Assembly: GCA_016197005.1 (NCBI GenBank)
Contig: JACPWO010000001.1
Coordinates: 153,134-217,133 of the forward strand
Direction of reading: 5' to 3'
DNA: 64,000 nucleotides
Source of the DNA: Candidatus Anderseniibacteriota bacterium
GTDB lineage: Bacteria; Patescibacteriota; Andersenbacteria; UBA10190
This document shows positions 1-36,153 of the stretch, piece after piece; the stretch's first letter is position 1, and every line of letters begins with the position of its first letter. The position numbers and the translations under genes were made by a program. Below the pieces are notes generated by a model. That model had not been told where the DNA came from. It made no database searches and saw nothing but the letters and a program-made list of their open reading frames with translations.

Positions 1-755
1 TTTTCTGCGCTTTCTCAATAGCAAGAGTGGCCGGCTTGTCAGGATTATTTTTCTGGATATTACTTATTAGCTCGTGGCGTAGTTGCCGGTATTGCGTATA
101 AAACTTCTTTGAGATTTCCTCTTCCTCAATCCTGATGGCCGAGAGGATTCTTTCTGTGTTGCTTTGGCCAGTCTTGGCAATAAAATTTTGGCGGCATAAG
201 AGATAATAGAATTTGCGGAATTGGTAATAATTATCTTTTGGATCAACTAAATCTTTCAGCGTAAATTCTTCGTAGTCGAGTTGGTTATCACGGTAAATAC
301 GCATTTCATAAAAGTTTGTTACCAGCACAAAATCACACCGCGTATATTGTGGCTTGTATTTAAATGCTTGCTGTACGGGGGTTAAATTGCCTTCGCGCTG
401 CTGTGGCTTATCTAACGACGTATTAACGTCTTTAATCTCGCATACAGCGTGTACGTGCTTCGTATCAGGGGAGAAATAGCCCAAAGCAGCATCGGGCTTT
501 TGACCGCTCGTTTCAGTTCGCGCCTTCGGGTCAATCGTATAGGACTCTTTGGGAAAACTAATGTGATCTAAGACTTTAATAAATACATCATTATTAAAAG
601 CCTGTTCGCATTGCGACTCTGTTTTTTGTTGGAGTTCACCACTCTTGTAAGCGTCATACCAACTCGTCAATATTTTGAGCCTTGCATCAAAATCAGAGAT
701 ATCAAAATTCTCTAGTGCTTCCGTGATTGTCCGATCTTTAAAAAGCCGCGCCATA
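1..755 (-). CDS. Restriction endonuclease-like N-terminal domain (MmeI-like Type IIL/IIG or HsdR_N-like). It is partial: the N-terminus starts at 755 and the ORF runs off the window start.
   Basis: Hand translation of the reverse strand from the ATG at 755 gives MARLFKDRTITEAL...KPDAALGYFSPDTKHVHAVCEIKD...RCDFVLVTNFYEMRIY with no stop before position 1. The PD...E-x-K motif and the VLVxxF segment resemble the MmeI N-terminal nuclease domain. The ORF is absent from the track because it is open-ended. Confidence 0.5.
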
Positions 756-945
756 TGTTTAATCGTGGCTCCTTAAAAGCCGGCCTACTGTCTTATAGCC
801 GATTAATTCTTGCTCTTCTTTATTCTCTATATTCACGGACGATATTGTTAGCTAAGTTAACATTTGCTAACAATAATATACTGCACAGATTAGGCTTCTG
901 GCAAAGTTTTATTACGTTTAATTTTCTTCGGAACAGGGGCGTTGG

Positions 946-1224
946 CTACTTAAAATACTTGTCTATCACCGGTTTATCTCGTACCGCGTTCTTTCGTTTC
1001 AGCAATTCCCCTTTTACGACCCTATATGCTATCTGGAATATGTACACTGCGCCGAATATCTCTAGCCCGAATCGTACACCCTCCCAAGTACCACCAAAGA
1101 ACAAGAACATAACTGCTAAGGATAGTAGTATCGCCAATCCAAGCAGAATAGGTACTTGCAAAACTTCAATGACTTTATACATATCCAGCAAATTTCCTAA
1201 AGAGATCAGTAAAGGCAGAAACAA
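946..1224 (-). CDS. Possible small membrane protein (92 aa with a TTG start, or 78 aa from an internal ATG), 2-3 predicted TM helices.
   Basis: It lies on the same strand between the 170-aa gene and the nuclease-domain gene, and its sequence is strongly hydrophobic and helical. The AT-rich DNA could produce such an ORF by chance. Confidence 0.3.
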   Translation of the reverse strand: MFLPLLISLGNLLDMYKVIEVLQVPILLGLAILLSLAVMFLFFGGTWEGVRFGLEIFGAVYIFQIAYRVVKGELLKRKNAVRDKPVIDKYFK

Positions 1225-1687
1225 AAACTAGCTCATTCTCTCGTTTTAGTCCTTGGGCATAGCTAGAAATCTTTTTCCAAATTGGCTTTAAAATTCTTTC
1301 ATCTTTTTTATTAAATTCGTCCATTTCAGTCCACAAAGCATTACATTCGTCAGTACGGTCTAGGGTGGTGATAAAAGTTTCCTTTACGTGATCAGCGTTT
1401 TTAAAATTTACATTCTTTAAACTCAAAATCAGGAATAATATAATTATTTCGTAGAGCACATAAAACGCTTCTCGATTAAACGATTTAACTTTATTTTTGA
1501 TGATGCCGCTATCTGGATGAAATAATATATCTATCCCCTTATTGGCGGTTATGAGCATCTTAATCAATATTTCTTTTTCAGTGGATGCTTCCAAAGCATT
1601 CAGTTGCGAGAAGATATCATTCAATACGGGAACAGCGTTTTGATTGAAGTGGAGAGTATCGCCTTTGAATACTGAAAGTAACCCCAT
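1175..1687 (-). CDS. Hypothetical protein (170 aa)
   Basis: Its ATG lies 6 nt after the stop of the upstream gene at 1694, so the two genes are tightly coupled. I do not recognise the family. Confidence 0.5.
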   Translation of the reverse strand: MGLLSVFKGDTLHFNQNAVPVLNDIFSQLNALEASTEKEILIKMLITANKGIDILFHPDSGIIKNKVKSFNREAFYVLYEIIILFLILSLKNVNFKNADHVKETFITTLDRTDECNALWTEMDEFNKKDERILKPIWKKISSYAQGLKRENELVFVSAFTDLFRKFAGYV

Positions 1688-1693
1688 ACCGAT

Positions 1694-2554
1694 TCACTTA
1701 GTTAGAATCCTAATCGCCGTATCAACCCCGTACTTCGGTGCTTCAAAAATACTTTGTAATTTCGAATAATCACCGACCTCGCGGTAATACTTGGTCATTC
1801 CAGCAATTGATGTAACCAGAAAAAGTAGGGCGGTGTCCGACAAGGATTTAGCCAGATATTGAAAAAACATTACTGTTGAAACAGGGGCATAATACCCTTC
1901 ACCAACAGTATCCATCTGGGTTTGAATGACACGAGTACCGTCCGACTTTTCGTAAAGCTCACCGGCATATGTCTTTGTTACACTGCCGAATCCTGACTTT
2001 ACCAACTCTTGTCCGGAAGATAGTACATTTGCTCGTTTAGGAGAGCCATCATTAAACACAGAAACGCCGGCGGTAGTGATATGTTTAACCAGTGCATCAG
2101 CCGGCTCGCCACGGCCTAGATTAAAGAGCATCTTGGCGTAGTAAAGCGTAAACATTTGTACAAGATCACTTTCCCTGCTTGCATTCGCCATCGCCTCACT
2201 CATATATTCAACTGACGCTTTGTCTTCACCGTAGAATTGGATTATGACCGCGCCTATTTTCTTGGGTGAGCCCGTGTTAGCCTGATCTGGTTTTGGTGCT
2301 GATTCTGGTTGTGATGAAATATGGCGGCCGTATCTTACAAACCAGTAAGCGGCCATAAGCGCAAAGATTATCCCTCCGAGTACAATTACATCAAGGAAGG
2401 TTGAACCAGAAGCACCATCACGCTCTGATTGATTTAGGATTTTGGAGAAAGCGAGTAGAAGAAACCACCAGTTTCGACGTAGAAAACGAGAAAAATTGTA
2501 CGGCTTGTTTTCCTTATTGGTTAATCCAACAATAGCCGGTTCTTTATTCTTCAT
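1694..2554 (-). CDS. Hypothetical membrane protein (286 aa): two N-terminal TM helices and one C-terminal hydrophobic segment.
   Basis: It is a long ORF and the first gene of a co-oriented four-gene set ending in the restriction-like gene. Confidence 0.5.
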   Translation of the reverse strand: MKNKEPAIVGLTNKENKPYNFSRFLRRNWWFLLLAFSKILNQSERDGASGSTFLDVIVLGGIIFALMAAYWFVRYGRHISSQPESAPKPDQANTGSPKKIGAVIIQFYGEDKASVEYMSEAMANASRESDLVQMFTLYYAKMLFNLGRGEPADALVKHITTAGVSVFNDGSPKRANVLSSGQELVKSGFGSVTKTYAGELYEKSDGTRVIQTQMDTVGEGYYAPVSTVMFFQYLAKSLSDTALLFLVTSIAGMTKYYREVGDYSKLQSIFEAPKYGVDTAIRILTK

Positions 2555-2841
2555 ACTTTATTTTCATCAAGGGTTTAAAGCTGGCAGAAAACACAAAGCC
2601 CACCGCCAGCGGTGGCCGGAGCCACCTACGCAAGTTTCCCTGCGTAACCTTGATGAAGGGCTGAACGATGGGTTCAGTATCATCAAGGCTTCTAACACCA
2701 TATCTGTGCTCATTTAAGAGCATCAGGGTTAGGTGCTTGGCACTTATCGTGCCGTATTAAGTTGTTAAGTATGGTTTACAGCGAATATCACCATTAAGCA
2801 AGCGCGGCGCACTGCGCTGGGGCTGTCCTGTCTTACCGGCA

Positions 2842-3051
2842 CTATTTCTTTTTCTGGGCAGCATTAACAAGCTTGATGACATCTGTTTTTCGGAAGCGTC
2901 GATCTTTCCGCACACCAATCCGCACCGCTTTTAAAATTCCCTTCCGATCCCAAGCCCTCAAACTATTAGGGTGGACTTGAAGCAGTTGAGCGGCCTGTTT
3001 GAGAGTAAGAAGTTCGGGCAATTCCAAGTCTTTTAATGTGATCTCTGGCAT
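2842..3051 (-). CDS. Excisionase/MerR-like helix-turn-helix DNA-binding protein (69 aa)
   Basis: The sequence LTLKQAAQLLQVHPNSLRAWDRKGILKAVRIG is typical of the excisionase-family HTH. The gene is small, basic and divergent from a regulator gene. Confidence 0.6.
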   Translation of the reverse strand: MPEITLKDLELPELLTLKQAAQLLQVHPNSLRAWDRKGILKAVRIGVRKDRRFRKTDVIKLVNAAQKKK

Positions 3052-3130
3052 TTGCTTACTAAGTTACCATTAATTACCATTAGCATACAGCCTAGAGTAT
3101 AGGCTGACAATAAAACCTAAAGAATAAAAA
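3052..3130. promoter_or_regulatory. Divergent intergenic switch region with the tandem direct repeat taccatta-at-taccatta and the palindrome cagccta-gagta-taggctg.
   Basis: The repeats are visible in the sequence. The region sits between divergently transcribed excisionase-like and wHTH regulator genes. Confidence 0.35.
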
Positions 3131-3913
3131 ATGTTAGATTTAATCAAACTCAACGAGGAGATTCTTAAAAAAATTCAGATTCTCCTTAGCATAGTGCGTA
3201 GCTCTATCAACCTTGATGGTGGAAAGTTGGAAAGAGTAATCATTCCTAAAGTTAATTTTGAAAACAAAGGCTTATTACTAAGCGACGTTGAAACGCTACT
3301 GAATCGAATTGAACGAGAAGAAAACGAACTGCTTAGTATAGTGCCGCATAGCCCCCGCGATCACCAACCACGCCCATCGTCAAGTGATCACTTAATGATC
3401 GAGGCAATGTATGGCGTTCCCGCTGATGAGCATTATGCAGAGAAGAAGCAAAAATATAATGAAATCTATTCAAAAAGTTTTGAGATAAAAATACCTGATC
3501 ATAAGAGGCTAGATGAATTTGAAGAGTTGATAGATTCCGAGATAAAAAATCAGAGCAATCTTATTTGTGGAGAACTGCGCTTTAATTCTAGTACGGGCGA
3601 GGTTGAGTATTTTGATCTAAAAGATCGATTACTGCCTGGCACAAAAGAATTTTTATTATTGCGTGCATTATTGGCAAAAAAAGGAGAGTGGATCAGTTAT
3701 GAAGAAATCGTTAGGGTTATTGATCGAGATGAGAAAAAGGCGATGGTTAAGTCTGATGGTAAGAGAATTCGTTCTCTAGTTCGTAACATCAAAAATAAAC
3801 TTGGAATGACGGATGCGGGAGCAAAGAAGCTTGGTATTACTCCACCACTGCCCTCCCTTTTTTCAGAAGCTAAACAAAGAACCAGAAATGGTGTCGCGAT
3901 GACGTGCAATTAG
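3131..3913 (+). CDS. Putative transcriptional regulator: unrecognised N-terminal domain plus an OmpR/PhoB-type winged-helix C-terminus, with no receiver domain.
   Basis: The C-terminus LPGTKEFLLLRALLAKKGEWISYEEIVRVI...KRIRSLVRNIKNKLG matches the trans_reg_C pattern (LTxxEFxLLxxL...G.V.SRE.L....W......R.V.V.I..LR.KL). Confidence 0.5.
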   Translation: MLDLIKLNEEILKKIQILLSIVRSSINLDGGKLERVIIPKVNFENKGLLLSDVETLLNRIEREENELLSIVPHSPRDHQPRPSSSDHLMIEAMYGVPADEHYAEKKQKYNEIYSKSFEIKIPDHKRLDEFEELIDSEIKNQSNLICGELRFNSSTGEVEYFDLKDRLLPGTKEFLLLRALLAKKGEWISYEEIVRVIDRDEKKAMVKSDGKRIRSLVRNIKNKLGMTDAGAKKLGITPPLPSLFSEAKQRTRNGVAMTCN

Positions 3914-4089
3914 GGCTTATTTACGGGGCTATTTTTGCGCCTAAAATCAGGCGTTTTTTAGTTATCCACAGCCAGTAGTCCATATCACGTTCCTATCACG
4001 CCTGACGCTATGCGTTCTCCATTATTGATGCCACGACCCATTATAGACCGGCCACGCGCAGGAACGGACAATGAAGGCACGGTACAAAT

Positions 4090-4338
4090 ATGGAGAATCA
4101 AGTCAAACAAACGTGGCAAACAGATGATTTCTACTTATCAGCTTTTTGCCTTGCGTCGGGAGTAAAACTAGCTGATCTCGATAAATCAAATCCTCGACAA
4201 ATTTTCTTTGTCTTTAACGATTTTAAGGGCAGAGAAAATTTAGAGAGGGATTTTATTTTTGGTCGCACCACTGTTGATCCGAAAAAGTACGCAGCCGCGA
4301 TCAAAGAGTTAAAAAATCTAATGTACTCCAATGGTTAG
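4090..4338 (+). CDS. Small hypothetical protein (82 aa), DUF-like and element-associated.
   Basis: Clean ORF. The N-terminus TDDFYLSAFCLASGVKLADL resembles small phage- or plasmid-associated DUF proteins. Only a weak match can be judged by eye. Confidence 0.4.
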   Translation: MENQVKQTWQTDDFYLSAFCLASGVKLADLDKSNPRQIFFVFNDFKGRENLERDFIFGRTTVDPKKYAAAIKELKNLMYSNG

Positions 4339-4481
4339 TCAGGAGTTACTACGGGAGTTACAGATGATTATTCGTGAGGAACGAGGAATCGATTTAGATA
4401 TGAAAACCGTGAGCGCATTTGGCAATACGTGGGTGGATTTCTTCGCAACATTGGCGAAAATAAATCATCGAATAATAAAGT

Positions 4482-4766
4482 ATGAAGAAGATAAATCAAA
4501 ATCATAAATCTCCATTCTTTGAATCTGAATTATCGGAAGATGAGAGGTTAGCACTCACTTTGCTTCGGGATGATCCTCGCATAGCAGAGCATATAAGAAA
4601 AATGTTGAATGAGTATATTCCGATAGCTCCCGTTGATCAACGAACCCTACAAGTAGCCATTGACGCCTACTTGGTACTTTTGGCGGCTAAAGGAAACATA
4701 CGGGAGTGTATTCGGTTACTAAAAGAGGAAGTGGGCGCAGATTGGCCTAGGTTTTTTCAGGTATGA
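4482..4766 (+). CDS. Hypothetical protein (94 aa)
   Basis: Its stop overlaps the start of the primase gene (ATGA overlap), which suggests translational coupling. Confidence 0.4.
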   Translation: MKKINQNHKSPFFESELSEDERLALTLLRDDPRIAEHIRKMLNEYIPIAPVDQRTLQVAIDAYLVLLAAKGNIRECIRLLKEEVGADWPRFFQV

Positions 4767-6676
4767 GCGAATACTTCTTAAAAAAAGAAATCTCGCCGCC
4801 CAACAAGGCAACTACCTTGTTACCTCCTAGTACAAACTATCAACCAACGACTCTTTATGATTGGGCAAAATTCTACCGCGATGAATTACACTGGTCTATC
4901 ATTCCGATTATTAAGCGTACTAAAAAACCACTTGTTGAGTGGAAAGTTTTTCAAACGAGATTAGCAAATGATGAGGAGTTAGACCAATGGTTCAAGGGGA
5001 AAAGCAATCTTGAAGTAGGTATCGGTTTAGTAACTGGAAAATTATCAGGAGTAATTGTTGTCGATGAAGATACATATAAGCAAAAAGAAGGAGCTCCGGC
5101 GATACTATCAACGCTAAAATCAAAAACAGGACGGGGTGGAATTCATCATTTCTTTCAGCTCCACAATGAGTTACGTAATTCTGTAAATGATGAATTGGCT
5201 GTCGACATACGAGCAGAGGGTGGTTTTGTTGTTTTGCCTCCTACAATTCACCCCAACGGAAAGCAGTATGAGTGGATTGATCAAGCGAGGTTCGGCCATA
5301 TTCCAGAGCTACCGCCGGCAATCCTACAGGCAATTTTGCCCGCTAATAAACGGGCAGCCAATAACGGCAACGCTAATTTTAGAGAACCCCTAAAGGCTCA
5401 AGACTTTATTGGACTCAACCAAGGCAGTCGAAATGATCGCTTGCATCAATTCGTATGCTCTCTTTTAAATAAACACCCAGAAGGCGAAGCACGAACCTTA
5501 GCGTGGGCAATGAACCTCACTTTCAACCCACCCTTAGGAGAGAAGGAGTTTAATACGTTGTTTGATTCAGCGATTACTTTCATTAGGGCAAACCCCAAGA
5601 GCAGCTCTTATTCAAACAACAAAAAAGAAATCGATAAGCAACGGGATAAATGGCAATTTTTTAGTGCCGATGACTTAAAGGAGAAGGATTTACCGCCACC
5701 AGAATTTACTGTTACCCCTTTGGCCGTAGAGGACGGAATCAATATGATATCGGGCGATCCGGCATCAATGAAGAGTATGGTACTCGTTCATATGGCTATA
5801 CAAATCACTAAGGGAGAAAAAGTCTTTGGTAAGTTTGACTCCAAACAATCGGGTGTGCTGGTTGTTGATGATGAAAATGGCGAACGTGAATTAAAGAAGC
5901 GGTTTAATAAATTAGGAGCGTTTAGTGCGTCTTTGCCGCTTCACTACATTGCATACCCTGATCCACCAATGGCATTTGAGCTAGCCGATGTTCAATACTT
6001 GATTACCAAATGCAAAGAAATGAAAGCATCGGTTATTATGTTTGACTCTTACGTTCGATTTTTAGATGGGAAAAGTGAGAACGAATCATCTGATACCTCT
6101 GAAATTAACCGGACTTTGAAGGAGTTTGTTAAGACTGGTATCACTGTCATCTTTATTCATCACCATCGCAAAGCCGGTCTTGTTAAGGCTAAGGGTGGCC
6201 AAGAAGCACGTGGTAGCAGCGATCTTCTTGCAGGCGTTAATTCTCACCTAATTGTTTCGAAGAAAAAAGATAGCCTTGTTATTAAACAAGTAAAGCTTAG
6301 AGAGGATAAGGCACTTGAACCATTCGAGGTAATGGCAGTTGATAGTGAAAATAAAACTAAACTTTCATTCGAATACGTTGGGGAAGTAAAGCCAGAAGCA
6401 GACCTTCTCGAAGAAGCCAAAACAGCGATTTTAGATATACTTTCCCAAAGCGATAGACCCTTGTACACAAAAGAAATTAGCGACGCGGTTAGTGAGGCAG
6501 TGGGGATAGGCAAGAAAACGTCAGATAACGCCCTCAAAGAATTAGTTTCTGAAAAGTCAGTTGAGCTAGACCCCAATAAACACGAAAAAAACAGAAATTA
6601 TTACTACCTACCAGACGATAAGCCGAGCAACGATGAACCCGTTGACGAGATTCAGAAGGCACTAGACCAGATATGA
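4763..6676 (+). CDS. Phage/plasmid-type primase-helicase: bifunctional Prim-Pol N-terminal domain plus a P-loop (AAA_25/RepA-like) domain.
   Basis: The N-terminus YDWAKFYRDELHWSIIPI...VIVVDEDTY is the Prim-Pol pattern. The central part has the P-loop-like segment GDPASMKSMVLVHMA and VLVVDDENGE, which is Walker B-like. The gene is long and sits inside the element. Confidence 0.75.
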   Translation: MSEYFLKKEISPPNKATTLLPPSTNYQPTTLYDWAKFYRDELHWSIIPIIKRTKKPLVEWKVFQTRLANDEELDQWFKGKSNLEVGIGLVTGKLSGVIVVDEDTYKQKEGAPAILSTLKSKTGRGGIHHFFQLHNELRNSVNDELAVDIRAEGGFVVLPPTIHPNGKQYEWIDQARFGHIPELPPAILQAILPANKRAANNGNANFREPLKAQDFIGLNQGSRNDRLHQFVCSLLNKHPEGEARTLAWAMNLTFNPPLGEKEFNTLFDSAITFIRANPKSSSYSNNKKEIDKQRDKWQFFSADDLKEKDLPPPEFTVTPLAVEDGINMISGDPASMKSMVLVHMAIQITKGEKVFGKFDSKQSGVLVVDDENGERELKKRFNKLGAFSASLPLHYIAYPDPPMAFELADVQYLITKCKEMKASVIMFDSYVRFLDGKSENESSDTSEINRTLKEFVKTGITVIFIHHHRKAGLVKAKGGQEARGSSDLLAGVNSHLIVSKKKDSLVIKQVKLREDKALEPFEVMAVDSENKTKLSFEYVGEVKPEADLLEEAKTAILDILSQSDRPLYTKEISDAVSEAVGIGKKTSDNALKELVSEKSVELDPNKHEKNRNYYYLPDDKPSNDEPVDEIQKALDQI

Positions 6677-6937
6677 AATCGCATCAATACACCTCACCAG
6701 ACAGTTACGCAGTATTTCTCCCCTATAAGGGGAGGAAATACTGCTCTACTGCTGTGGTTATGAGGCTAAAGAACCAGTTGCGCAGTTCAGTTGCGCACAT
6801 CAATAATCAGAATAAACGGCTTAATCAAGGGTGCAATAGATTCAGTCGCGCAGTAGCGCAAAGAGGAGGTGATCATTAGAAATGAGCCAAAAGATCAAGT
6901 TAGGCTTAAAGCATCGTGAGTTGTATCGTGAGTAAGC

Positions 6938-7336
6938 TTGGTGTGGGATATAATAGAGTTGATGGAAAACAGCACAAAACAGAGCTATGTGTGGCAAGAA
7001 GTGGAATTCATTGAGGCATTTACCAACCCATTATCATCAACATTTGCCAACGGCCGACGATCCGCGCTGCAAGTGGGATATAGCCCTTGGTATGCCCGTA
7101 ATATCCGCTCACACTTCCCACCTCACCGGATTATGAAGCTGCAAAGAATCGTTGAGGCTAGAAGGGCGGTTACAGGCGACGAGCAAGAGAACAAAATAAT
7201 ATTTGAGTACGTTGATAAACCATTGACGCGGCGGATCGTTCGCAAGAATCGACGAGCCCTACCATCACACTTACAGCCTACCCCCTTTGAACAGGTATCG
7301 CGCGAGCTCGATGAACTGCTTGGCCCGATAGAGTGA
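6938..7336 (+). CDS. Hypothetical protein. The ATG at 6962 is the more likely start.
   Basis: The ORF lies between the primase gene and the recombinase gene. I do not recognise the family. Confidence 0.4.
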   Translation: MVWDIIELMENSTKQSYVWQEVEFIEAFTNPLSSTFANGRRSALQVGYSPWYARNIRSHFPPHRIMKLQRIVEARRAVTGDEQENKIIFEYVDKPLTRRIVRKNRRALPSHLQPTPFEQVSRELDELLGPIE

Positions 7337-7514
7337 TTATCACTTATTGACTAGTTTCAAGAGGTCGCTAGAGCCTCTACTAACAGGATATGCTCAAAAA
7401 AGATGGTTAATTTGTAGAGTAATATTAAGTAATGTAGTGCAAAAATGATCAAAATCGCTTCAAAATCAATTAAAATGCCTTCAAAAAGTTACCTTTATGC
7501 GCTATAATATGAAC

Positions 7515-7620
7515 GTGATCCAGCTAAATACAAAAGCCCAGAGTTTTTTATTTGCGTCGCTACCCGTAAAGGGGCAGTCTGCTAGCGACGTATTCCTCTG
7601 GGAGTATATTGCTGGATCAC
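7515..7620 (+). repeat. Nested inverted repeats forming a long imperfect hairpin in the leader of the serine recombinase gene.
   Basis: The pairs are gtgatccagc (7515-7524) with gctggatcac (7611-7620), cccagag (7537-7543) with ctctggg (7596-7602), and cgtcgcta (7555-7562) with tagcgacg (7583-7590). A TATAAT box sits just upstream at 7503-7508. Confidence 0.45.
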
Positions 7621-7651
7621 AACAGGCTGTCCCTTTTAGGTTATTGAAATT

Positions 7652-9346
7652 ATGAAAGTTGTTGGATTGGCTAGGGTATCTTCAAAGGAGCAAGAATCGG
7701 GCTACTCCCTAGATGCACAGGTAAAGCTCAATAAGGAGTATGCCGGCGGCAAGGATTTTACGATTGTTAAGACCTTTAGAATTACTGAATCGGCAAGTGG
7801 CAAGCAGATACGTAAAATCTTCAATGAGATGCTTAACTTTGCTACTGATCACAATATCCCCGTGATTATTTGCGAGAAGATTGATCGTTTAACCCGCAAC
7901 TTGAAAGACGCAAACACAGTTAATGAATGGGTTAGGGAAGATAAAAAGCGAGAGGTTCACTTTATTAAGGAAAACTTTATCCTCAATAGCAATACGAGAG
8001 CGCACGAAAACCTAGTTTGGGATATGAAAGTGGCAATTGCACGTTTCTACTCCAATAATCTTTCAGAGGAAATCCGCAAGGGGCAAAAAGAAAAGATAGC
8101 CCAAGGCGGCTTTCCTACTAAAGCGAAGCCTGGCTACAAAGGCGTCGGAGAAAAAGGCCACAAAGTTGATGTTATTGATGAGGCGGTAGCTCCTTACATT
8201 ATTCAAATGTTTGAGCGGTATGCTACTGGCAACTATTCCCTAAAGGCTTTGGTTAAAGTGATGTACGAGGAGGGGTTAAGAAATAGAAGTGGAAAAAAGA
8301 TAGGTAAAACAAGGATGCACCAATTACTTGCTGATCCGTTCTACTATGGAAAATTGCGCTGGAAGGGCGAAATTTATCAAGGAAACCACCAGCCAATTAT
8401 TTCAAAAGAGCTTTTTGACGCTGTGCAGATCAAATTAGACCGCAACCTTTCTAATCCTCAATATCGGAAACATTTACCTATATTCAAGGCCAAGATTAAA
8501 TGCGAGGAGTGCGGCGGCCTTATAACGTGGGAACTCCAAAAAGGCCACTGGTACGGCCATTGCAATCATTATCGAGATTGCGGTCAAAAGGCTTATACGC
8601 GGCAGGAAAAAGTCGAAGAACAGCTTTTCCCATACTTTGATAAGGTAGCCCCTAAGAGTGATCGGGTATTAAATTGGCTAGAACGAGCCTTAAAAGAAAG
8701 TCATAAAGATAAGATTCAATATCATACCGCCCAGCGAGAGAAACTGAATACGCAGATAGCAACCATTGATCAACGTATGGAAGGGGCGTATGAGGATAAA
8801 TTAGATAAGAGAATCACGGCCGAGAAGTACGATGAACGGAGCCGTAAATGGCAGGAGGATAAAGCAGATTTACTAAAATCACTGCATAACCTAAGCGATG
8901 CTAACCAACAATATTATCAAGTAGGTTTTGCTATTCACGAGTTGGCACTTAAAGCCAAAGCAATCTACCACTCTCAACAAGCAACCACCGATGATAAGCG
9001 ATTATTGTTGAGCAAGCTCTTTGCGGATATGTCTTTAGATGAAGGCAAGCTCACCGGCAATTACTCTGCTGCCTTTGAGTTTTTAATCACTTGGATACCC
9101 AAAGTAAACAAGATTTTCGAACCAGAGCTAAAAGTGGCAAGCAATAAGGCGTTAGCAACCAGTACCGCAAAAGAGCTCCAAAAGGCTATGGCTGGGGTAG
9201 CTGATCAACGACAGGATTTTCGAACCGATAAAAACAAATCTGTTGAGCCACAAAAGGTATTATCAGATGCAGAAACGAATGTATTGTTCCCGGGCAGGGA
9301 TTCGAACCCCGATTCAGAGCTCCAAAGGCTCTTGTCCTGCCGTTAG
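7652..9346 (+). CDS. Large serine recombinase (resolvase/invertase catalytic domain, recombinase domain and zinc ribbon).
   Basis: The N-terminus VGLARVSSKEQESGYSLDAQ carries the catalytic Ser motif. The protein is large and has a Cys cluster CEECGG...HCNHYRDCG. Its last ~19 codons are encoded by the complement of the tRNA-Gln. Confidence 0.85.
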   Translation: MKVVGLARVSSKEQESGYSLDAQVKLNKEYAGGKDFTIVKTFRITESASGKQIRKIFNEMLNFATDHNIPVIICEKIDRLTRNLKDANTVNEWVREDKKREVHFIKENFILNSNTRAHENLVWDMKVAIARFYSNNLSEEIRKGQKEKIAQGGFPTKAKPGYKGVGEKGHKVDVIDEAVAPYIIQMFERYATGNYSLKALVKVMYEEGLRNRSGKKIGKTRMHQLLADPFYYGKLRWKGEIYQGNHQPIISKELFDAVQIKLDRNLSNPQYRKHLPIFKAKIKCEECGGLITWELQKGHWYGHCNHYRDCGQKAYTRQEKVEEQLFPYFDKVAPKSDRVLNWLERALKESHKDKIQYHTAQREKLNTQIATIDQRMEGAYEDKLDKRITAEKYDERSRKWQEDKADLLKSLHNLSDANQQYYQVGFAIHELALKAKAIYHSQQATTDDKRLLLSKLFADMSLDEGKLTGNYSAAFEFLITWIPKVNKIFEPELKVASNKALATSTAKELQKAMAGVADQRQDFRTDKNKSVEPQKVLSDAETNVLFPGRDSNPDSELQRLLSCR

Positions 9347-9358
9347 ACGACCCGGGAA
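9287..9358 (-). tRNA. tRNA-Gln (anticodon TTG)
   Basis: Reverse complement TCCCGGGTCGTCTAACGGCAGGACAAGAGCCTTTGGAGCTCTGAATCGGGGTTCGAATCCCTGCCCGGGAA. The acceptor stem is 7 bp, the anticodon stem AGAGC/GCTCT is perfect, the loop is CTTTGGA, and the T-loop is TTCGAAT. Confidence 0.8.
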
Positions 9359-9472: not shown

Positions 9473-9997
9473 CTAGCGCTTTTTCTTGGGTAGGTGAGAG
9501 CCGGTAGCGGCAAATCGAGTCTCCATGGCCCGCTGACGTCGATTGGCTTCGTGCCGCGCACTCTTCTCGCGCTTTCTTTTCTGCTGGCTGGCACGGTACT
9601 CTTCAAAATCAACCATACTCTGAGTGAGATTGGAGAGTTCTTCCGACAGCGCCTCCAATGAAGGAAGCTTCTGCTTCGCCAACGCATGAAGCTCCATACT
9701 TTGGAACTGCTTCAGCAAGTGACCGCATCGAACGGTGTAGCGCTTCACAGCGACGATCCTCTCGTCGGGGTCAGTTCCCCGTTGCTTCAGAATCTCCCGT
9801 GCAGCTTCAATATCTCCACGGATATCGCTGACGAGCTGCTGGGCCTCGTAGTACTGGGCCAATCTTTCACGCATCTGTTCGATCGTCATCTTGGGCTTGT
9901 CGTGTTGACGAGCCGCTTTTTCCTCGACGTGTCGACGTACGTTGGGATCCGCAAATCTTGGGCTCCAACGGAGAGTGGGGGCAACGGCTGAAATCAT
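9473..9997 (-). CDS. Hypothetical basic/coiled-coil protein (174 aa), encoded in a locally GC-rich stretch.
   Basis: AGGAG lies 7 nt upstream of the ATG at 9997 and a terminator follows. The composition is Lys/Arg/Glu-rich. I do not recognise the family. Confidence 0.5.
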   Translation of the reverse strand: MISAVAPTLRWSPRFADPNVRRHVEEKAARQHDKPKMTIEQMRERLAQYYEAQQLVSDIRGDIEAAREILKQRGTDPDERIVAVKRYTVRCGHLLKQFQSMELHALAKQKLPSLEALSEELSNLTQSMVDFEEYRASQQKRKREKSARHEANRRQRAMETRFAATGSHLPKKKR

Positions 9998-10402
9998 GGC
10001 ACTGCTCCTGTTTGAGAAAAGAACGGGTGTACTATCCTACCTCTCACGACCATCGCGAACGATGACCACGAAGGGTAGGAGCCCGTCTGTCTCACGACAG
10101 TCGGGCGTAGTTGGAGGGATCTCTAGGATCTCGGGATGAGCGCCTTGATGAGATCAAACTCGCGCTGAGCGGCAGGTGGTAATTCGCCCCTGAAACCGCT
10201 GTACATGATCCGCTCTCGCAAATCCGGCGAGAAGTGATTCATGCGCCGTCTCGGCATCCGAAATTTGGCGGTCCGGCCAACGTGTGGAGAGGTGCGTAGC
10301 ATTGTAGAATCCTTCCAAGCCTTCCGGGAGAGGCGCTATAGGAGAGGGGACAGATATCGTAAATCCCGTCATTTACGAAACATTGCATATTATCACAATA
10401 CT

Positions 10403-11692
10403 ATGGTAATGTCAAATATGAATACTAATGAGGAAAAATTAGCACTAAAGCTCCCAAACCTTTCATATGACCTCATTGTTATAGGCGGTGGAGCCGCTGG
10501 TATGATGGCTGCCGGCCGAGCAGCTGAACGTGGCAAACATGTGCTCCTCTTGGAAAAGAATAACTATTTAGGAGAGAAACTAAAGATTACAGGTGGGGGG
10601 CGCTGCAATGTTACCAATGCCGAAGAAGACGAGCATACACTTTTACGCCATTATGGGGAGGCAAAGCAATTTCTTCACTCTCCCTTTTCTCAGTTTGGAG
10701 TAAAAGACACATTTTCTTTTTTTGAAAGTCGAGGACTCCCACTGGTAGTGCAAGCAGGGAAGCGAGCTTTTCCGCACACCGAAAAAGCGGTCGATGTATT
10801 TCGTATCCTTAAGTCCTATCTAGACAAAGGCAATGTTGAGATTCGAACAAACAGTGCAGTTACAAGCATAGTACGTAAAGAAGGCCACATTGAAAAAGTT
10901 GTAACGAAAGATGCAGAATTTATTGCGTCAACATATATCCTGGCAACTGGTGGAAAATCTCACCCAGAGACTGGCTCAACAGGTGATGGGTTTTTCTGGC
11001 TCAAAGAACTCGGACATGAAGTGCATGAACCAACTCCCACGATTGTACCGCTGCGAACAAAGGATGCCTGGATTAAAGCACTCGCTGGAGTTTCAGTAGA
11101 GTTTATGAAGATAACGTTCTTTGTGAATGGAAAAAAGAAACTTTCTTTGAAAGGGAAAATACTTTTTACTCACTTTGGTTTATCTGGACCTCTCATTCTA
11201 AATACTGCTGGGAAAGTAGCTGATTTGCTGCATGAAGGAGCAGTCACCGCTCGAATTGATATATTTCCAGATATGGATTTGGGAGCACTTAACAAAAAAG
11301 TAGTAGATACTTTTGATACCAATAAAAATAAACTCCTGAAGAATGTATTTCGGCACATTGCTCCGGCTGGTACCGGGAGTGCTATTCTGGCGCTTCTGGA
11401 AACTATTAACCCAGACAAAAAAGTGCATAGCGTTACAAAAGAGGAACGTAAGCAGATGGTGGATCTTCTCAAGGCACTACCGGTACACATCACGGGACTG
11501 ATGGGATTCGATAAAGCAGTCGTTGCCGATGGGGGAATAGCTCTTTCCGAAGTACACGCTAAAACGATGCAATCACGCCTATTCGATAACTTGTACGTAA
11601 CCGGGGACTTACTGCATATAAACCGACCTTCCGGTGGATACTCGCTTCAGCTTTGTTGGACAACCGGGTATGTAGCTGGAAGTAATGTGTGA
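10403..11692 (+). CDS. HI0933-family (BaiN/YhiN-like) NAD(P)/FAD-dependent flavoprotein oxidoreductase.
   Basis: The motif DLIVIGGGAAGMMAAGRAAERGKHVLLLEKNNYLGEKLKITGGGRCNVTN is characteristic. I take the real start as the ATG at 10403. The longer ORF beginning at 10241 is a spurious extension. Confidence 0.8.
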   Translation: MVMSNMNTNEEKLALKLPNLSYDLIVIGGGAAGMMAAGRAAERGKHVLLLEKNNYLGEKLKITGGGRCNVTNAEEDEHTLLRHYGEAKQFLHSPFSQFGVKDTFSFFESRGLPLVVQAGKRAFPHTEKAVDVFRILKSYLDKGNVEIRTNSAVTSIVRKEGHIEKVVTKDAEFIASTYILATGGKSHPETGSTGDGFFWLKELGHEVHEPTPTIVPLRTKDAWIKALAGVSVEFMKITFFVNGKKKLSLKGKILFTHFGLSGPLILNTAGKVADLLHEGAVTARIDIFPDMDLGALNKKVVDTFDTNKNKLLKNVFRHIAPAGTGSAILALLETINPDKKVHSVTKEERKQMVDLLKALPVHITGLMGFDKAVVADGGIALSEVHAKTMQSRLFDNLYVTGDLLHINRPSGGYSLQLCWTTGYVAGSNV

Positions 11693-11747: not shown

Positions 11748-12812
11748 TTACTTCATTGTTTCGTCGACCACCTGCTTGATCGTTAGCCGAAATATTCCGG
11801 ACCGACGAACGAATTCATCCAGTGAGAGTCGACTAGAATCCTCAATGAGATCTAAAAGGCCATCTAGGTCTCCTTCATAGATAGTTGTTGTGTTGTCCGA
11901 GTTCATGTACCGACTGGTGCTAATAAAAGCTCGATGACCAGCGATCTGTGCAGCACTTTCCAGTGATCCTCCGTGCTCTAGAAAAAGCCTAAGGCCCGTG
12001 GCACGAAGCACGCGGGGAGTAATGTCTCTTTTAATTCCAGCGCGACGTGCAATACCTTTGATTGCTCTTTGAACACTCCGCGGGTGTAGACGATCGCCTA
12101 CAACGCCGTTAACTCCTTTCTGGAGTACCGGGAAAAGAGGATCAGACGCCTTATTGAATGGAGTATGCGCTAAATACTCATCAACGTAAGTTTCGACGAG
12201 TGTATTTGCGGGAATGTACCGTTCAAACTTGTTCGTAATATGGAACCACCGTCGATTGTCACGAAATTGATAGTCTGCAACGTTCAATTCAAGCATAGCC
12301 TCTGTCGAAAGAAATCCATGGAGTATCGTGGCCATCATGGCTCGATTTCGCAACTGCACAAGTGATTCTCCATTACTAGCCTTAAGTAGTTGGGCAATCT
12401 CTTGAGCACTCAATCGCGCAGTGGCCCCCTCATCATCCACCTTTGAACGCTTGACTGATGCTACAGGATTTGCCGGAAGGAGCTCACCTTTCACAAACCA
12501 GTCAAAAAAAGTATGGATAGCTGCTAACTGGAAATTCGTATATCGAGGCTTGTACTTTTGATCCACCACTGAAACGAAGGCTTCAACTATTTTGTGATTC
12601 ACTTGCGATAGGACAAAATTCTGCTTATCGCACCACGATAGAAAATGTGAGATGGCTCTTCCGTAAGTATCACGCACTCCATTACTCTGAATACGTTCGT
12701 AGAAATAACTTTGGAATCTGGATACAAACTCGGGACCAGCCCGCGTAACTGATTGGGGACAGTGGGTAAGCAATACCATTACCGTCCTCGGCAATTCTTT
12801 TCGATCGCTCAT
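11748..12812 (-). CDS. Tyrosine site-specific recombinase (XerC/XerD-like).
   Basis: The C-terminus LRATGLRLFLEHGGSLESAAQIAGHRAFISTSRY fits the R..H-R..Y catalytic pattern. GGAG is present upstream of the ATG. Confidence 0.8.
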   Translation of the reverse strand: MSDRKELPRTVMVLLTHCPQSVTRAGPEFVSRFQSYFYERIQSNGVRDTYGRAISHFLSWCDKQNFVLSQVNHKIVEAFVSVVDQKYKPRYTNFQLAAIHTFFDWFVKGELLPANPVASVKRSKVDDEGATARLSAQEIAQLLKASNGESLVQLRNRAMMATILHGFLSTEAMLELNVADYQFRDNRRWFHITNKFERYIPANTLVETYVDEYLAHTPFNKASDPLFPVLQKGVNGVVGDRLHPRSVQRAIKGIARRAGIKRDITPRVLRATGLRLFLEHGGSLESAAQIAGHRAFISTSRYMNSDNTTTIYEGDLDGLLDLIEDSSRLSLDEFVRRSGIFRLTIKQVVDETMK

Positions 12813-33662: not shown

Positions 33663-34163
33663 CTACGAGATGCGCGCTTGTTTCAGCTCCTTAAGGGCTC
33701 GCTCTTTGTTTCTAAAGCCAAGAACTTCAATTTTCTTTTGTTTTTCGCGGGCTAAATCAATAAAAAGTTGTTCTAGGCGTTCTCGGTACTCAGCCGGCAA
33801 GTCTGGCAAATCATGAAAGGCGGCCTGCGTTTGATCAGCCGCTGGAATTGTGAGGAGTTTATTATCTACCTCGCCTCGATCAAGGAGTTCAATCATCCCA
33901 ACCGCTCGTACAGGAACAACGGTTCCTGATTCGATAGCGGAATTAGAAAATACCACCGCATCAAGAGCATCGCCATCACCACCACGCGTCTGTGGCACGT
34001 AGCCGTAGTTGTATGGCCAACGAAAGGTTTCACTAAAGACGAAATCTAAAATAATTTTATCTTGTGCTTCATCATACTCATACTTATTGCGACTACCATC
34101 TGGAATTTCTATGACAACATTAAAGACGTCGAAGGTGCCAAATGGGATATTTTTAAAACTCAT
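33663..34163 (-). CDS. ppa: Inorganic pyrophosphatase (family I)
   Basis: VVIEIPDGSRNKYEYD and GGDGDALDAVV are signature segments. Confidence 0.85.
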   Translation of the reverse strand: MSFKNIPFGTFDVFNVVIEIPDGSRNKYEYDEAQDKIILDFVFSETFRWPYNYGYVPQTRGGDGDALDAVVFSNSAIESGTVVPVRAVGMIELLDRGEVDNKLLTIPAADQTQAAFHDLPDLPAEYRERLEQLFIDLAREKQKKIEVLGFRNKERALKELKQARIS

Positions 34164-34245
34164 TGTTGAAGCTTACGTGTATATATTTCAAAGCACCACT
34201 CCTATAAGAAAAACCAATGCCATCGCTGTTTTTAAATTTTACTAG

Positions 34246-34317
34246 TTCCCGAGTAGGGATTCGAACCCCAATTTCCAGGTTCAGAGCCTGGCGTCCTGCC
34301 GTTAGACGACCCGGGAA
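34246..34317 (-). tRNA. tRNA-Gln (anticodon CTG)
   Basis: The reverse complement is TCCCGGGTCGTCTAACGGCAGGAC-G-CCAGG-CTCTGAA-CCTGG-...GGGGTTCGAATCCCT.... Its 5' half is identical to the tRNA-Gln(TTG) at 9287..9358. Confidence 0.8.
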
Positions 34318-34373
34318 TGTACCTGGGTTATACCTTTTTTGTACTTGCCTCGCAAATGCGGTAAGGTAAAAAA

Positions 34374-34637
34374 ATGACGGAGAACGAGCTAGAAAAAATA
34401 CTTGCACGCCAAGCCGATAGAGTTGCTAAAGAATCTAATGAACGGATGGAGCAGTATGTTGGTGCAATAAAGGAAGATTTTGATCACAAGTTAGATGCAA
34501 TATTGGAAATACTGCCTAATATCCAACGAAAAGTGGATATTACGTTCGATAAGGGTGGAGAAATGGTACCGGATGTTGAGCTGACAAAGGGGATTGTTCA
34601 AAACCACGAGACCAGAATTAGAGCACTGGAAGGATAA
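34374..34637 (+). CDS. Hypothetical protein (87 aa)
   Basis: ORF only. Confidence 0.35.
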   Translation: MTENELEKILARQADRVAKESNERMEQYVGAIKEDFDHKLDAILEILPNIQRKVDITFDKGGEMVPDVELTKGIVQNHETRIRALEG

Positions 34638-34653
34638 ATCACGCATTGGAGAA

Positions 34654-35181
34654 ATGATAAAAATAATACTCAGTATCCTCGTACTGATCGGTATAACCAT
34701 CGGCTTTTTTCATTGGCAGAGTAAGCAGAAAGAAGCTGACATTACCACCTTTGAAGAATGTGGTGCCGCCGGATACCCAATCATGGAGAGCTATCCAGCG
34801 CAGTGTCGTACCGCTGATGGTAAACATTTCGTGCAAGATATTGGGAATGAACTAGAAAAACAAGATCTTATCCAACTATCTGACCCCCGTCCCGGACAAA
34901 CAATTACGCATACAGTACATGTCACCGGACAAGCACGTGGTACGTGGTTTTTTGAAGCTTCTTTTCCCGTTCACCTGCAAGACAGTCAAGGGAATACACT
35001 AGTAACGGCGGTCGCTCAGGCGGAAGGTGAATGGATGACTGAATCATTCGTGCCATTTTCTACTACGCTAACTATTCCACCCTCTTTTAGTGGAAAGGCG
35101 ACGTTAGTTTTAGAAAAAGATAACCCATCCGGCTTGCCAGAACACGCTGACGCCCTACGCGTACCGGTCATTGTTGAATAG
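34654..35181 (+). CDS. Secreted Gmad2 immunoglobulin-like domain protein
   Basis: GTWFFEASFPVHLQDSQGNTLVTAVAQAEGEWMTESFVPF...LEKDNPSGLPEHADALRVPV matches the Gmad2 pattern. An N-terminal signal/TM segment is present and GGAG lies before the ATG. Confidence 0.5.
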   Translation: MIKIILSILVLIGITIGFFHWQSKQKEADITTFEECGAAGYPIMESYPAQCRTADGKHFVQDIGNELEKQDLIQLSDPRPGQTITHTVHVTGQARGTWFFEASFPVHLQDSQGNTLVTAVAQAEGEWMTESFVPFSTTLTIPPSFSGKATLVLEKDNPSGLPEHADALRVPVIVE

Positions 35182-35183
35182 GC

Positions 35184-35819
35184 ATGAAGATTACGAAGAT
35201 TGGACATTGCTGCCTCCTTATTGAGGATCAAGGAAAAGTGATCATGACCGACCCCGGGGCGTGGTCAACCGCTCAAAATGAGGTGCACGGTGTAGATATT
35301 ATTTTAATTACCCACGAACATCCCGATCACTTTCACCTAGAATCCCTAAAAACAGTACTGGCGAATAATCCGCAAGCAGTTGTTATCACAAACAGTCGAG
35401 TTAAAGAGCTACTGGCTGAACAAAACATTCAAGCCACTGTCTTGGAAGACTTACAAAAGAAAAATATTGGAGATATAGAAATAGCTGGGTTTGGAACCGA
35501 ACATGCCACTATTTATTCCACGTTTCCGAATGTGATGAATACTGGCTACTTACTACAAAATCGCTTCTTTTACCCTGGTGATGCATTCACGAATCCGCAT
35601 ATCCCCATTGAAATTCTAGCAATGCCCATTATCGGTCCGTGGATGAAACTATCCGAAGCAATTAATTGGATAAAAGAGATACAGCCAACTGTCTGCTTTC
35701 CAGTACACGACGGTATGTTGCAACCACGAGAGTGGATATATAAAGGACCAACTACTATTTTAAAAGACAGCGGAATTACGTTTGAAGTTATTGAACCAGG
35801 AGTTTCTCGAAATTTCTAA
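35184..35819 (+). CDS. MBL-fold metallo-hydrolase
   Basis: ILITHEHPDHF is the HxHxDH motif. Confidence 0.75.
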   Translation: MKITKIGHCCLLIEDQGKVIMTDPGAWSTAQNEVHGVDIILITHEHPDHFHLESLKTVLANNPQAVVITNSRVKELLAEQNIQATVLEDLQKKNIGDIEIAGFGTEHATIYSTFPNVMNTGYLLQNRFFYPGDAFTNPHIPIEILAMPIIGPWMKLSEAINWIKEIQPTVCFPVHDGMLQPREWIYKGPTTILKDSGITFEVIEPGVSRNF

Positions 35820-35910
35820 TATCTCTCTAGTACTTCAAGGGTAGCTTTTTCTCTTAGGAAGGAGTTTAATAAAGCCATAAGCACTTTGATAAGTTTAGGA
35901 GGTGAGCGAT

Positions 35911-36153
35911 ATGAATAAAGGACTTCACGTAGTAGCATTTGCGCTGGTAATCATCGGCGGGCTTAACTGGCTTGCTGTTGGTCTCTTTGGATGGGACATT
36001 GGCCAAATCTTTGGTGGTATGGAAGCCATGGCATCGCGCGTCATCTACGTACTCGTCGGCGTCGCCGCTGTGTACCTCGCAGCTACTCACAAAAACGATT
36101 GTCGAGCTTGCGGAGGCAGCTCGATGGGTGGCGGAAACATGATGAACAAATAA
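35911..36153 (+). CDS. DUF378-like small membrane protein
   Basis: Two TM helices are predicted, with the segment GGLNWLAVGLFGWD. AGGAGG lies upstream. Confidence 0.5.
   Translation: MNKGLHVVAFALVIIGGLNWLAVGLFGWDIGQIFGGMEAMASRVIYVLVGVAAVYLAATHKNDCRACGGSSMGGGNMMNK

Follow-up and report, generated by a model that had tools for sequence, protein, structure and literature searches.

The 64,000-nucleotide stretch of DNA analysed here (the window) comes from Candidatus Andersenbacteria, a tiny groundwater bacterium of the Candidate Phyla Radiation (CPR), and opens with the right-hand 9.3 kb of a mobile element that abuts a gene for tRNA-Gln(UUG). We propose, with a probability of roughly 0.85, that this is a 15,446-bp integrative element inserted at the extreme 3' end of the tRNA gene by a large serine recombinase (LSR; rec1, or the integrase), and that the element's own attachment site, attP, lies inside the open reading frame (ORF) of that integrase. 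A preliminary description of the sequence had recognised an integrated mobile element with a serine recombinase as its integrase at this tRNA, and Pfam domain matches to the recombinase, together with detection of the tRNA by ARAGORN and Rfam, bear this out. It had also supposed integration into the 3' half of the tRNA followed by rebuilding of the gene; here our analysis departs from it, as the exchange maps to the extreme 3' end and only 5 bp (TGTTC) are shared by the two junctions.

In the integrated state, rec1 has 564 residues, exactly as described before, and its ORF ends within the complement of the tRNA, with which it overlaps by 61 nt; the tRNA itself had been placed one base off, at 9287..9358 rather than at the 9286..9357 called by ARAGORN. 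The tRNA is intact, with a perfectly paired T-stem and acceptor stem. Residues 1-546 of rec1 are encoded by element DNA, contain the Pfam Resolvase match (residues 3-152) and keep all recognisable domains of the protein. Residues 547-564 come from the tRNA-Gln complement: they are the last 18 codons (PGRDSNPDSELQRLLSCR), which follow the shared 5-bp core and run to a stop in the complement of the D-loop. The claim that the C-terminus of the recombinase is encoded by the tRNA needs to be recast, since the tRNA-derived tail replaces a conserved 32-residue true tail whose codons lie at attL, 15.4 kb away.

The left boundary had correctly been suspected to lie outside the window: the attL core is found about 6.16 kb to the left of its start. 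We located the element by exact-protein look-up on a 492-kb contig of GCA_016178385.1 (locus L001), a sister metagenome-assembled genome (MAG), and on Logan contigs from SRR121134xx. The window and L001 differ at 1 of 11,687 overlapping bases, and L001 reaches 8.8 kb to the left of the window start, where the left 6.2 kb of the element were read (a window position equals 11688 minus the L001 position; the offset of locus L004 is 2349). The element extends from about window position -6157 to 9289. Its GC content of 0.412 is below the 0.465 of host DNA in the window (Mann-Whitney test on 1-kb windows, p = 8e-8), and its tetranucleotide distance to the host centroid is 0.021-0.023, about twice the 0.010-0.012 of host chunks. 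The block is thus AT-richer than the core, as had been noted before, and uneven in k-mer composition. The low-GC block ends just before the gene for a second large serine recombinase (rec2), at the same place as the attL junction. The single difference between window and L001, an A/T polymorphism at window position 7999, produces R116S in the conserved NTRAHENLVWDM motif of the integrase in L001, and the NCBI annotation of the sister contig calls no gene at the integrase position.

TGTTC is the only sequence common to the two junctions, of which attR reads ..gaatgtatTGTTCccgggcagggattcgaacc and attL reads ..gaaataagTGTTCacttggcgggacgcgtttagaacc. The core corresponds to tRNA positions ~71-75, that is, to G71, A72 and A73 (the discriminator) plus two bases of the trailer; the mature tRNA sequence is unaltered, and CCA is encoded at neither junction. 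At L001 17844, reading downward (the window plus strand), the sequence continues as ACTTGGCGGGACGCGTTTAGAACC.., and when the window up to 9289 is joined to it the result is an open frame of 578 aa, of which the last 32 codons read TWRDAFRTFNWSKAIPYPAVELGQIRHLLALV*. The same C-terminal peptide ends the intact homologues P0034, P0038, P0042, P0090 and P0101. In the closest relative, L087, whose integrase (P0002) is 81% identical to rec1, the arrangement is the same and the element measures 11.6 kb. The tail fragments of the two elements differ at 11 of 33 codons, with 10 synonymous changes and 1 non-synonymous change, and the detached tail has therefore been translated as part of a protein in its recent history, under purifying selection at the protein level. 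Besides L087, six more loci carry at their far ends both a tail fragment and a core of 4-7 bp, and these elements measure 7.2-11.5 kb; across 8 loci the identity between attL and attR covers only 4-7 bp, at the tRNA terminus.

According to the mechanism we propose, attP would lie within the integrase ORF, 32 codons ahead of the stop, and strand exchange between attP and the tRNA site would take place inside the 5-bp core TGTTC, which should contain the exact crossover dinucleotide. Integration would keep the mature tRNA, swap its 3' trailer for element DNA, and split the integrase gene, leaving codons 1-546 beside the tRNA and the true last 32 codons at attL; excision would rejoin the tail and restore the 578-aa protein. 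The acceptor/T-arm of the tRNA would act as the B' half-site, with the T-loop sequence as the zinc-ribbon-domain (ZD) motif. Because attP would lie inside the integrase ORF, integration would change the C-terminus of the protein, and this tail swap may have a functional effect. Excision is predicted to yield the junctions ..GAATGTATTGTTCACTTGGCGGGAC.. (attP) and ..GAAATAAGTGTTCCCGGGCAGGGA.. (attB), for which the k-mers would be GAATGTATTGTTCACTTGGCGGGACGCG in the excised circle and GAGAAATAAGTGTTCCCGGGCAGGGATTCG in the empty site. On the window's own contig, ..AAATAAGTGTTCACTTGGCGGGACGCGTTTAGAACC.. is predicted to occur some 6.1-6.3 kb left of the window start, together with the 32-codon tail.

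The most direct alternative is that the element integrated inside the tRNA, whether at the T loop or in the 3' half, rebuilt the gene with its own copy of the 3' segment and left a displaced fragment to mark attL, as tyrosine-integrase islands do. The intact tRNA with its perfectly paired T-stem and acceptor stem would suit this, as would the T-loop-like TTCGAACC motifs near both element ends and a 19-nt copy of a tRNA-Asn 3' end at the left GC boundary of one related locus, L034, whose identity ends in the T loop (4168-4188 against 11535-11557, in a 7.4-kb island of GC 0.40 within a host of 0.60). The expected displaced fragment is missing. The 24-nt 3' segment of tRNA-Gln has no copy within 18 kb of the tRNA (L001 2403-20513), whether as an exact match, with ≤3 mismatches or by local alignment; over the window its only other match is the tRNA-Gln(CUG) gene at 34245, and among 33 related loci a tRNA repeat of ≥11 nt occurs only in L034. 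The search for a direct repeat of ttcccgggcagggattcgaacccc that had been suggested as the route to attL returned nothing in the 8.8 kb upstream and could not have located it. The lack of such a repeat is what would be expected of a serine integrase, and the 4-7 bp of identity at the tRNA terminus in 8 loci also argue against exchange within the tRNA, as do the compensatory T-stem differences between the window element and L087, which are expected if the whole tRNA belongs to the host.

The preferred reading, exchange by an LSR at the tRNA terminus, can be compared with the sites of characterised serine integrases. In LI integrase, the ZD motif lies at positions 16-24 of attP half-sites and 11-19 of attB half-sites (PMC3783163). 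When B' (tRNA) and P' were compared across the 8 loci, a shift of +5 gave the best agreement (52/112 matches, against 13-40 at other shifts), and with the centre set in the core the T-arm GGATTCGAA falls at ~11-19 and the P' sequence CGTTTAGAA at ~16-24. This register shift agrees with the attP/attB rule of LI integrase. At the level of sequence the family is remote from solved LSRs, with only the catalytic domain detectable (E ~1e-4; TP901-1 and a C. difficile recombinase). An AlphaFold2 (AF2) model of the intact homologue P0042 (pLDDT 80) is matched by Foldseek to full-length SPbeta, phiC31, Bxb1 and LI integrase structures, with E-values from 6e-18 (SPbeta integrase) to 2e-10 (LI integrase, 4KIS), and is predicted to contain long antiparallel helices over residues 360-448. 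The family combines an N-terminal resolvase-type catalytic domain with a serine nucleophile, a recombinase domain and a zinc ribbon with a coiled coil inserted in it, the last as predicted by the P0042 model, and its sites combine a small common core with a ZD motif that lies 5 bp nearer the centre in attB than in attP.

At E < 1e-10, rec1 has more than 2,500 homologues, the closest of them 55-65% identical, and their names are mostly those of Parcubacteria, Moranbacteria, Pacebacteria and similar groups, mostly within the CPR. In 22 aligned homologues the residues of the catalytic motif, including R8 and S10, are invariant, as are Cys284, Cys287 and Cys310, with Cys304 nearly so; a Zn_ribbon_recom domain is recorded for several family members. 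The conserved core ends at W.P..N..FEP, after which many tails read ..LLRRQDSNL.. or ..LGDRDSNP.., with DSN encoded by GAT TCG AAC, the T-loop complement. In the 79 genome loci that we collected, the retrieved DNA includes the stop codon of 71 recombinase ORFs. Almost half of these (33/71) end inside an opposite-strand tRNA called by ARAGORN, namely tRNA-Asn(GTT) in 17 cases, tRNA-Gln in 15 and tRNA-Glu in 1, and the distance between the T-loop TTCGAA and the W codon of W.P..N is always 107 nt, in Asn- and Gln-joined members alike. The overlap is therefore not a chance read-through. Tails antisense to a tRNA are present in at least 83 of the 120 closest proteins, and, as judged from sequence, the majority of the family appears to be joined to tRNA-Asn or tRNA-Gln genes in this layout. 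IMG/VR holds only two close relatives, so the family is not recognisably viral. Several family integrases abut tRNAs with group I introns (L036 10726-10969, minus strand, matches Rfam Intron_gpI at 58 bits), and low-threshold ARAGORN runs repeatedly called tRNA-Asn and tRNA-Thr with 180-300-nt introns in CPR MAGs (L009, L014, L021, L022, L061, L064, L065, L067, L070 and L076).

The point of exchange can be read from the tails themselves. In aligned DNA, short-tail members share an invariant GCT|C at offsets 92-95 after the W.P..N anchor, which is the tRNA terminus. Beyond it, class 1 members continue as tRNA antisense; class 2 members continue as non-tRNA sequence with a T-loop-like TTCGAA exactly 5 bp further out, and encode the conserved peptide (A/T)W.D.FRT(F/Y).W....P.P......LLALV*. 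In one locus, L015, positions 1-1874 are 100% identical to 9663-11536, which gives a repeat unit of 9,662 bp. Its first copy (..TTTGTAC|ACTTGGCGGGACGCGTTTCAAACC..) is of class 2 and forms an internal P|P' junction of the attP type; the second departs from it at exactly the predicted base, the contig breaks off one base later, and this end resembles one of the attR type. Close relatives of L015 are joined to tRNA-Glu at the same point. Taken together, the divergence of the repeat and these tRNA-Glu-joined relatives place the exchange at the tRNA terminus and not in the T loop. The repeat is either a tandem dimer or the product of assembly through coexisting circular and integrated forms. Near-identical P arms (..KTGLLQPVSSSML) are likewise joined to tRNA-Gln in L055, L063 and L083 and to P'-type sequence in L058, and the second recombinase of L058 has a related arm (..STSML) joined to tRNA-Asn. 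A repeat unit that ends at the tRNA terminus, and near-identical element arms joined to different tRNAs, are at odds with integration inside the tRNA and rebuilding of the gene, which we regard as very unlikely. A specific version of this idea, a T-loop crossover with the 3' end of rec2 as the left junction (L001 ~17,945, where 17/24 positions match the tRNA from the T loop on), was ruled out by the real P' arm and tail 100 nt further in.

Short-tail relatives also show what becomes of the tRNA trailer. On the tRNA-sense strand, the 35 nt that precede the tRNA terminus in these elements form a hairpin of 8 bp capped by a GAAA-type loop, and a T tract comes after it (alignment A3, L005-L083, at 46-96 nt past the W.P..N codon; for example, L034 11493-11542 and L017 11487-11536). 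Across 32 sequences 84.6% of cells pair, with compensatory changes in 8/8 pairs; the covariation score is 0.69, against 0.29 in shuffles (0/500 reach the observed value) and 0.12-0.28 in slid controls, and folding z-scores are about -5. The hairpin appears to be a replacement intrinsic terminator for the tRNA, placed antisense within the integrase coding region, and this would explain why the peptide ..KGKE.TF..SHP.LL is conserved. On visual inspection, several attL sites show native host terminators on their B side. Behind the tRNA of the window element we found no convincing terminator hairpin, and the same holds for its subfamily.

Where short-tail relatives have the hairpin, the subfamily of the window element has two internal ATTTTCGAACC motifs (at 9112 and 9215). 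The copies of GATTTTCGAACC at these places are read in different frames. The first corresponds to a TTCGAA that many relatives have at a constant distance of 24 from the W.P..N anchor. The second resembles the T-loop-like motif of the element arm P', and the peptide (N/Y/D)FRT(D/S) is conserved across the long-tail subfamily in an alignment of homologues. In addition, the 144 nt before the tRNA (9142-9285) bear a weak in-register likeness to it with a period of 72 nt (27/72 and 29/72 identical positions, where the background is 17.7 +/- 3.7), and include three copies of GAGC(T/C)(C/A)CAAA(A)GG spaced by exactly 72 nt. We considered tandem decayed tRNA copies at the integrase 3' end, and set this idea aside since the identity is suggestive but not significant enough. 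From their sequence, the 144-nt stretch and the two motifs could be relics of former att or tRNA sequences; alternatively, they could serve as accessory binding sites.

Several observations weigh against the proposed reading. The left 6.2 kb of the element, including attL, were read from the contig of the sister MAG GCA_016178385.1 and not from the window's own contig. No empty attB was found among contigs carrying the flanking host gene, exact searches for the attP and attB junctions in JGI metagenome contigs both came back empty, and no locus showed terminal overlaps or a circular contig. With neither an empty attB nor an excised attP found for this element, its current mobility is no more than a possibility. 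The symmetry of the left half-sites (P and B) was not convincingly shown, and the C-terminal tail is predicted by AF2 to be helical with a pLDDT of only 55-77. Finally, L034 has its 19-nt tRNA-Asn 3'-end repeat at the left GC boundary and no detected tail fragment; this disagrees with the model drawn from the other loci, and would fit an exchange further into the tRNA or else another history.

Some of the same facts would suit a dead, decaying island in which the ORF just happens to continue through the tRNA complement as far as a stop and the tail at the far end is a meaningless leftover: no excised form or empty site was found, the recombinase gene is not called in the annotation of the sister contig, the sister copy carries R116S in a conserved motif, and, unlike in short-tail relatives, no convincing terminator hairpin follows the tRNA. 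We consider such decay improbable, because the ORFs of the core module are all intact, as are the 5-bp cores, and because the detached tail is in frame, ends at the stop typical of the family and differs from that of L087 by 10 synonymous changes against 1 non-synonymous change.

The genes of the element, together with its junctions and neighbours, are collected in Table 1. All of the excisionase-like, regulator, primase-helicase and restriction-like genes that the preliminary description listed are present, as judged by Pfam, PHROG and PADLOC.

Table 1. Features of the tRNA-Gln(UUG) element and its flanks. Positions are those of the window unless L001 is named; negative values lie to the left of the window.
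Feature	Position	Strand	Evidence or remark
rec2, second large serine recombinase, 429 aa	L001 17958-19247, ~window -7559..-6270	-	GC ~0.50; 26% identical to rec1
attL core TGTTC	L001 17845-17849 = window -6161..-6157		second copy, 15,446 bp left of attR, ~6.16 kb before window start
DUF4268 protein and Cas4-like PD-(D/E)XK nuclease	L001 14002-15695, ~window -4007..-2314		cargo beside type IIG enzyme
MmeI-like type IIG restriction-methyltransferase, first 251 of 1023 aa	1..754	-	full gene L001 10934-14005
170-aa cargo protein	1175..1687	-	no Pfam, PHROG or PADLOC match; called gene on all contigs carrying it
286-aa protein	1694..2554	-	sub-threshold TPR_5 only; TPR_5 (weak) gene at same place in L087
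LOOT RNA (Rfam RF03000)	2611..2735	-	64.2 bits against gathering threshold 46.4; E 2.9e-10; full-length model; L001 8953-9077
HTH_17/MerR-type excisionase-like protein, 69 aa	2842..3051	-	Pfam HTH_17 1.3e-10; PHROG 66 'excisionase and transcriptional regulator' 4e-9; position conserved in L087
Putative regulator, C-terminal winged helix, 260 aa	3131..3913	+	Trans_reg_C 8e-4, below curated cut-off; syntenic 241-254-aa gene in L087, L088
DUF5659 protein, 82 aa, core module	4090..4338	+	Pfam PF18903 5e-10; syntenic in L087, L088
58-aa small ORF, core module	4331..4507	+	called gene L004 6680-6856; 54-58-aa gene at same place in L087, L088
94-aa protein, core module	4482..4766	+	91-94-aa gene at same place in L087, L088
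Primase-polymerase fused to RepA/AAA_25-type helicase, 637 aa, replication module	4763..6676	+	Pfam Prim-Pol 1e-23, AAA_25 6e-22; PHROG DNA polymerase/primase 4e-30
~131-aa protein upstream of integrase	6938..7336	+	called gene on contigs; no Pfam or PHROG family match
rec1, large serine recombinase, integrated-state form, 564 aa	7652..9346	+	Pfam Resolvase 2e-22, Recombinase 3e-16
First internal GATTTTCGAACC motif	9112..9123	+	encodes ..IFEP..; marks end of family-conserved core
Second internal GATTTTCGAACC motif	9215..9226	+	encodes DFRT, different frame; 82 nt before tRNA T-loop TTCGAA
attR core TGTTC	9285..9289	.	attL/attR comparison; only sequence common to both junctions
tRNA-Gln(UUG), intact	9286..9357	-	ARAGORN; Rfam 58 bits; proposed B' half of attachment site
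T-arm motif GGATTCGAACC	9298-9308		within tRNA-Gln; 5 bp nearer core than P' counterpart
Tyrosine recombinase (Phage_integrase family)	11748-12812	-	host side, 2.4 kb right of tRNA, beside parB and a sigma-70 gene

The type IIG enzyme matches Pfam Eco57I (2e-43), TaqI_C, N6_Mtase, MmeI_Mtase and MmeI_N, as well as PADLOC REase_MTase_IIG (2e-114), and the DUF4268 protein matches the PADLOC candidate defence system PDC-S11 (3e-126). With these two and the Cas4-like nuclease, the island qualifies as a small defence island. The left stretch read in L001 also encodes proteins of 107 and 514 aa. In L087 and L088, a D5_N/DUF5906 primase takes the place of the primase-polymerase (PrimPol)-helicase, through which the element may replicate after excision. 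The 69-aa HTH_17 protein is a candidate recombination directionality factor.

The orphan LOOT RNA is flanked by the excisionase-like gene and the 286-aa gene, both of which are on its strand. LOOT was also found in four related elements at 80-85 bits (L088 125-249, minus strand; L030 7486-7617, L033 7541-7660 and L036 2959-3081, all plus strand). It falls within the mapped element in L030, L033 and L036, and beside the core module in L088, a distribution that suggests it may be a component of these serine-integrase elements. A more speculative extension, which we hold only tentatively and think more likely wrong than right, is that the integrase acts CPR-wide as a state switch, the 578-aa enzyme of the free element and the tRNA-antisense-tailed enzyme of the integrated one differing in activity or directionality, with LOOT as a regulatory RNA of these elements. 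The element would keep attP in its own ORF and use the acceptor/T-arm of the tRNA as the host half-site, and the free form would bear the conserved helical C-terminal peptide; one might then be, for example, an integration-competent form and the other an excision-competent or silenced one.

Two further recombinase genes lie close by, and either could in principle have moved the island. The rec2 gene ends 113 nt outside attL and is followed there by TTCGAA-containing sequence, and the Phage_integrase-family gene stands 2.4 kb to the right of the tRNA. Both are outside the 5-bp cores and the low-GC block, and only rec1 has a junction-interrupted ORF with its tail at the far end. Homologues of rec2, which is only distantly similar to rec1 (26% identity), belong to another CPR family (at least 8,000 matches at E ≤ 1e-20) and are found at the 3' ends of protein genes, in prophage-like contexts or next to terminase genes, not at tRNAs, with tails that lack the tRNA signature. 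The tyrosine recombinase sits beside parB in host-like DNA. We therefore give almost no credence to mobilisation of the island by either gene. On the other side of rec2 come a gene for an RNA ligase and a pair of tRNA-Ala genes, in GC-rich DNA (L001 19456-20151 and 20297-20444; GC 0.54-0.56); before the insertion rec2 would have been convergent to tRNA-Gln, and its region may be a neighbouring prophage or island. The tyrosine recombinase, whose called length is 284 aa or 343 aa depending on the assembly, is possibly a Xer-type housekeeping enzyme. No other LSR or occupied site was found within the window. The tRNA-Gln(CUG) gene (34245-34316, minus strand), whose 3' end matches that of tRNA-Gln(UUG) at all but 2 of 24 positions, is unoccupied, has no recombinase nearby and carries AGTTC instead of the TGTTC core; the DNA to its right is somewhat AT-rich (GC 0.417-0.427 over 34001-36000).

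Serine integrases are the main tools for the insertion of large DNA. To our knowledge, they are generally held not to use tRNA genes. The family described here is a very large one that does use them, reading the T arm, a universally conserved feature of an RNA gene, as a DNA recognition motif. Within it, nature provides enzymes in two versions that are identical but for the C-terminal tail, depending on integration state, so that the role of the extreme C-terminus in directionality becomes directly testable; for dozens of orthologues, the paired attB and attP sequences can be taken straight from genomes. These integrases also mark out a kind of mobile element that is common among CPR bacteria, a group with a little-known mobilome; the elements carry defence cargo, and the orphan LOOT RNA is placed inside an integrative element in five related elements.

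Among phage and integrative and conjugative element (ICE) LSRs (LI/A118, SPbeta SprA, phiC31, Bxb1, TP901-1), the shared features are the resolvase catalytic domain, the recombinase domain and the zinc ribbon with an inserted coiled coil, as well as short cores, a motif 5 bp nearer the centre in the host half-site and an integrase gene beside attP. Unlike in those systems, the target here is the terminus of a tRNA gene and not a protein-coding gene or intergenic site, attP would lie inside the integrase ORF, sequence identity to solved LSRs is very low, and relatives of rec1 carry what appears to be the tRNA terminator antisense in the integrase coding region. The geometry, which had been described as typical of elements that integrate into a tRNA 3' end and rebuild it, is typical of tyrosine-integrase islands and not of serine integrases. 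With tRNA islands of the Islander type (Williams 2002 sublocation classes) the element shares its position on the 3' side of the tRNA, the preservation of tRNA function, an integrase at the tRNA-proximal end and defence-type cargo. It differs from them in having no Phage_integrase gene between the cores (the nearest is on the host side, at 11748..12812) and no displaced tRNA fragment (a direct repeat of at least ~15 nt), the shared core being 5 bp, and in supplying only the trailer/terminator and not the 3' half of the tRNA.

Use of t(m)RNA genes by serine integrases has been predicted before for 14/297 S-Int islands by Mageeney et al. 2020, who state that such use was unreported until then and needs experimental proof (PMC7192596). 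In the literature covered, from which subscription journals are absent, we found no description of this CPR family, of a tRNA-terminus target, or of a serine integrase ORF that spans attP at a tRNA. The nearest parallel for the last feature is provided by the SSV-type 'suicidal' integrases of archaeal viruses and plasmids, in which attP lies within the integrase ORF and integration at a tRNA partitions the gene (PMC7253208). As there, the gene here would be split between the element ends, with the final 32 codons in frame at attL; SSV-type enzymes, however, are tyrosine recombinases divided into two inactive parts, whereas here a serine integrase loses only its last 32 residues, keeps all recognisable domains and gains a tRNA-antisense tail. 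The tycheposons and cryptic elements of Prochlorococcus, likened here by description only, are also small tRNA-associated integrative elements with primase/helicase replication modules and cargo, and 27/937 of them carry a large serine recombinase (bioRxiv 10.1101/2020.12.28.424599). They belong to another host phylum and mostly use tyrosine recombinases, and the accessible part of that preprint mentions neither a split integrase ORF nor the 5-bp-core geometry. Set against these systems, the reaction is that of an ordinary LSR, carried out at an unusual target and with an attP that lies within the ORF of the integrase.

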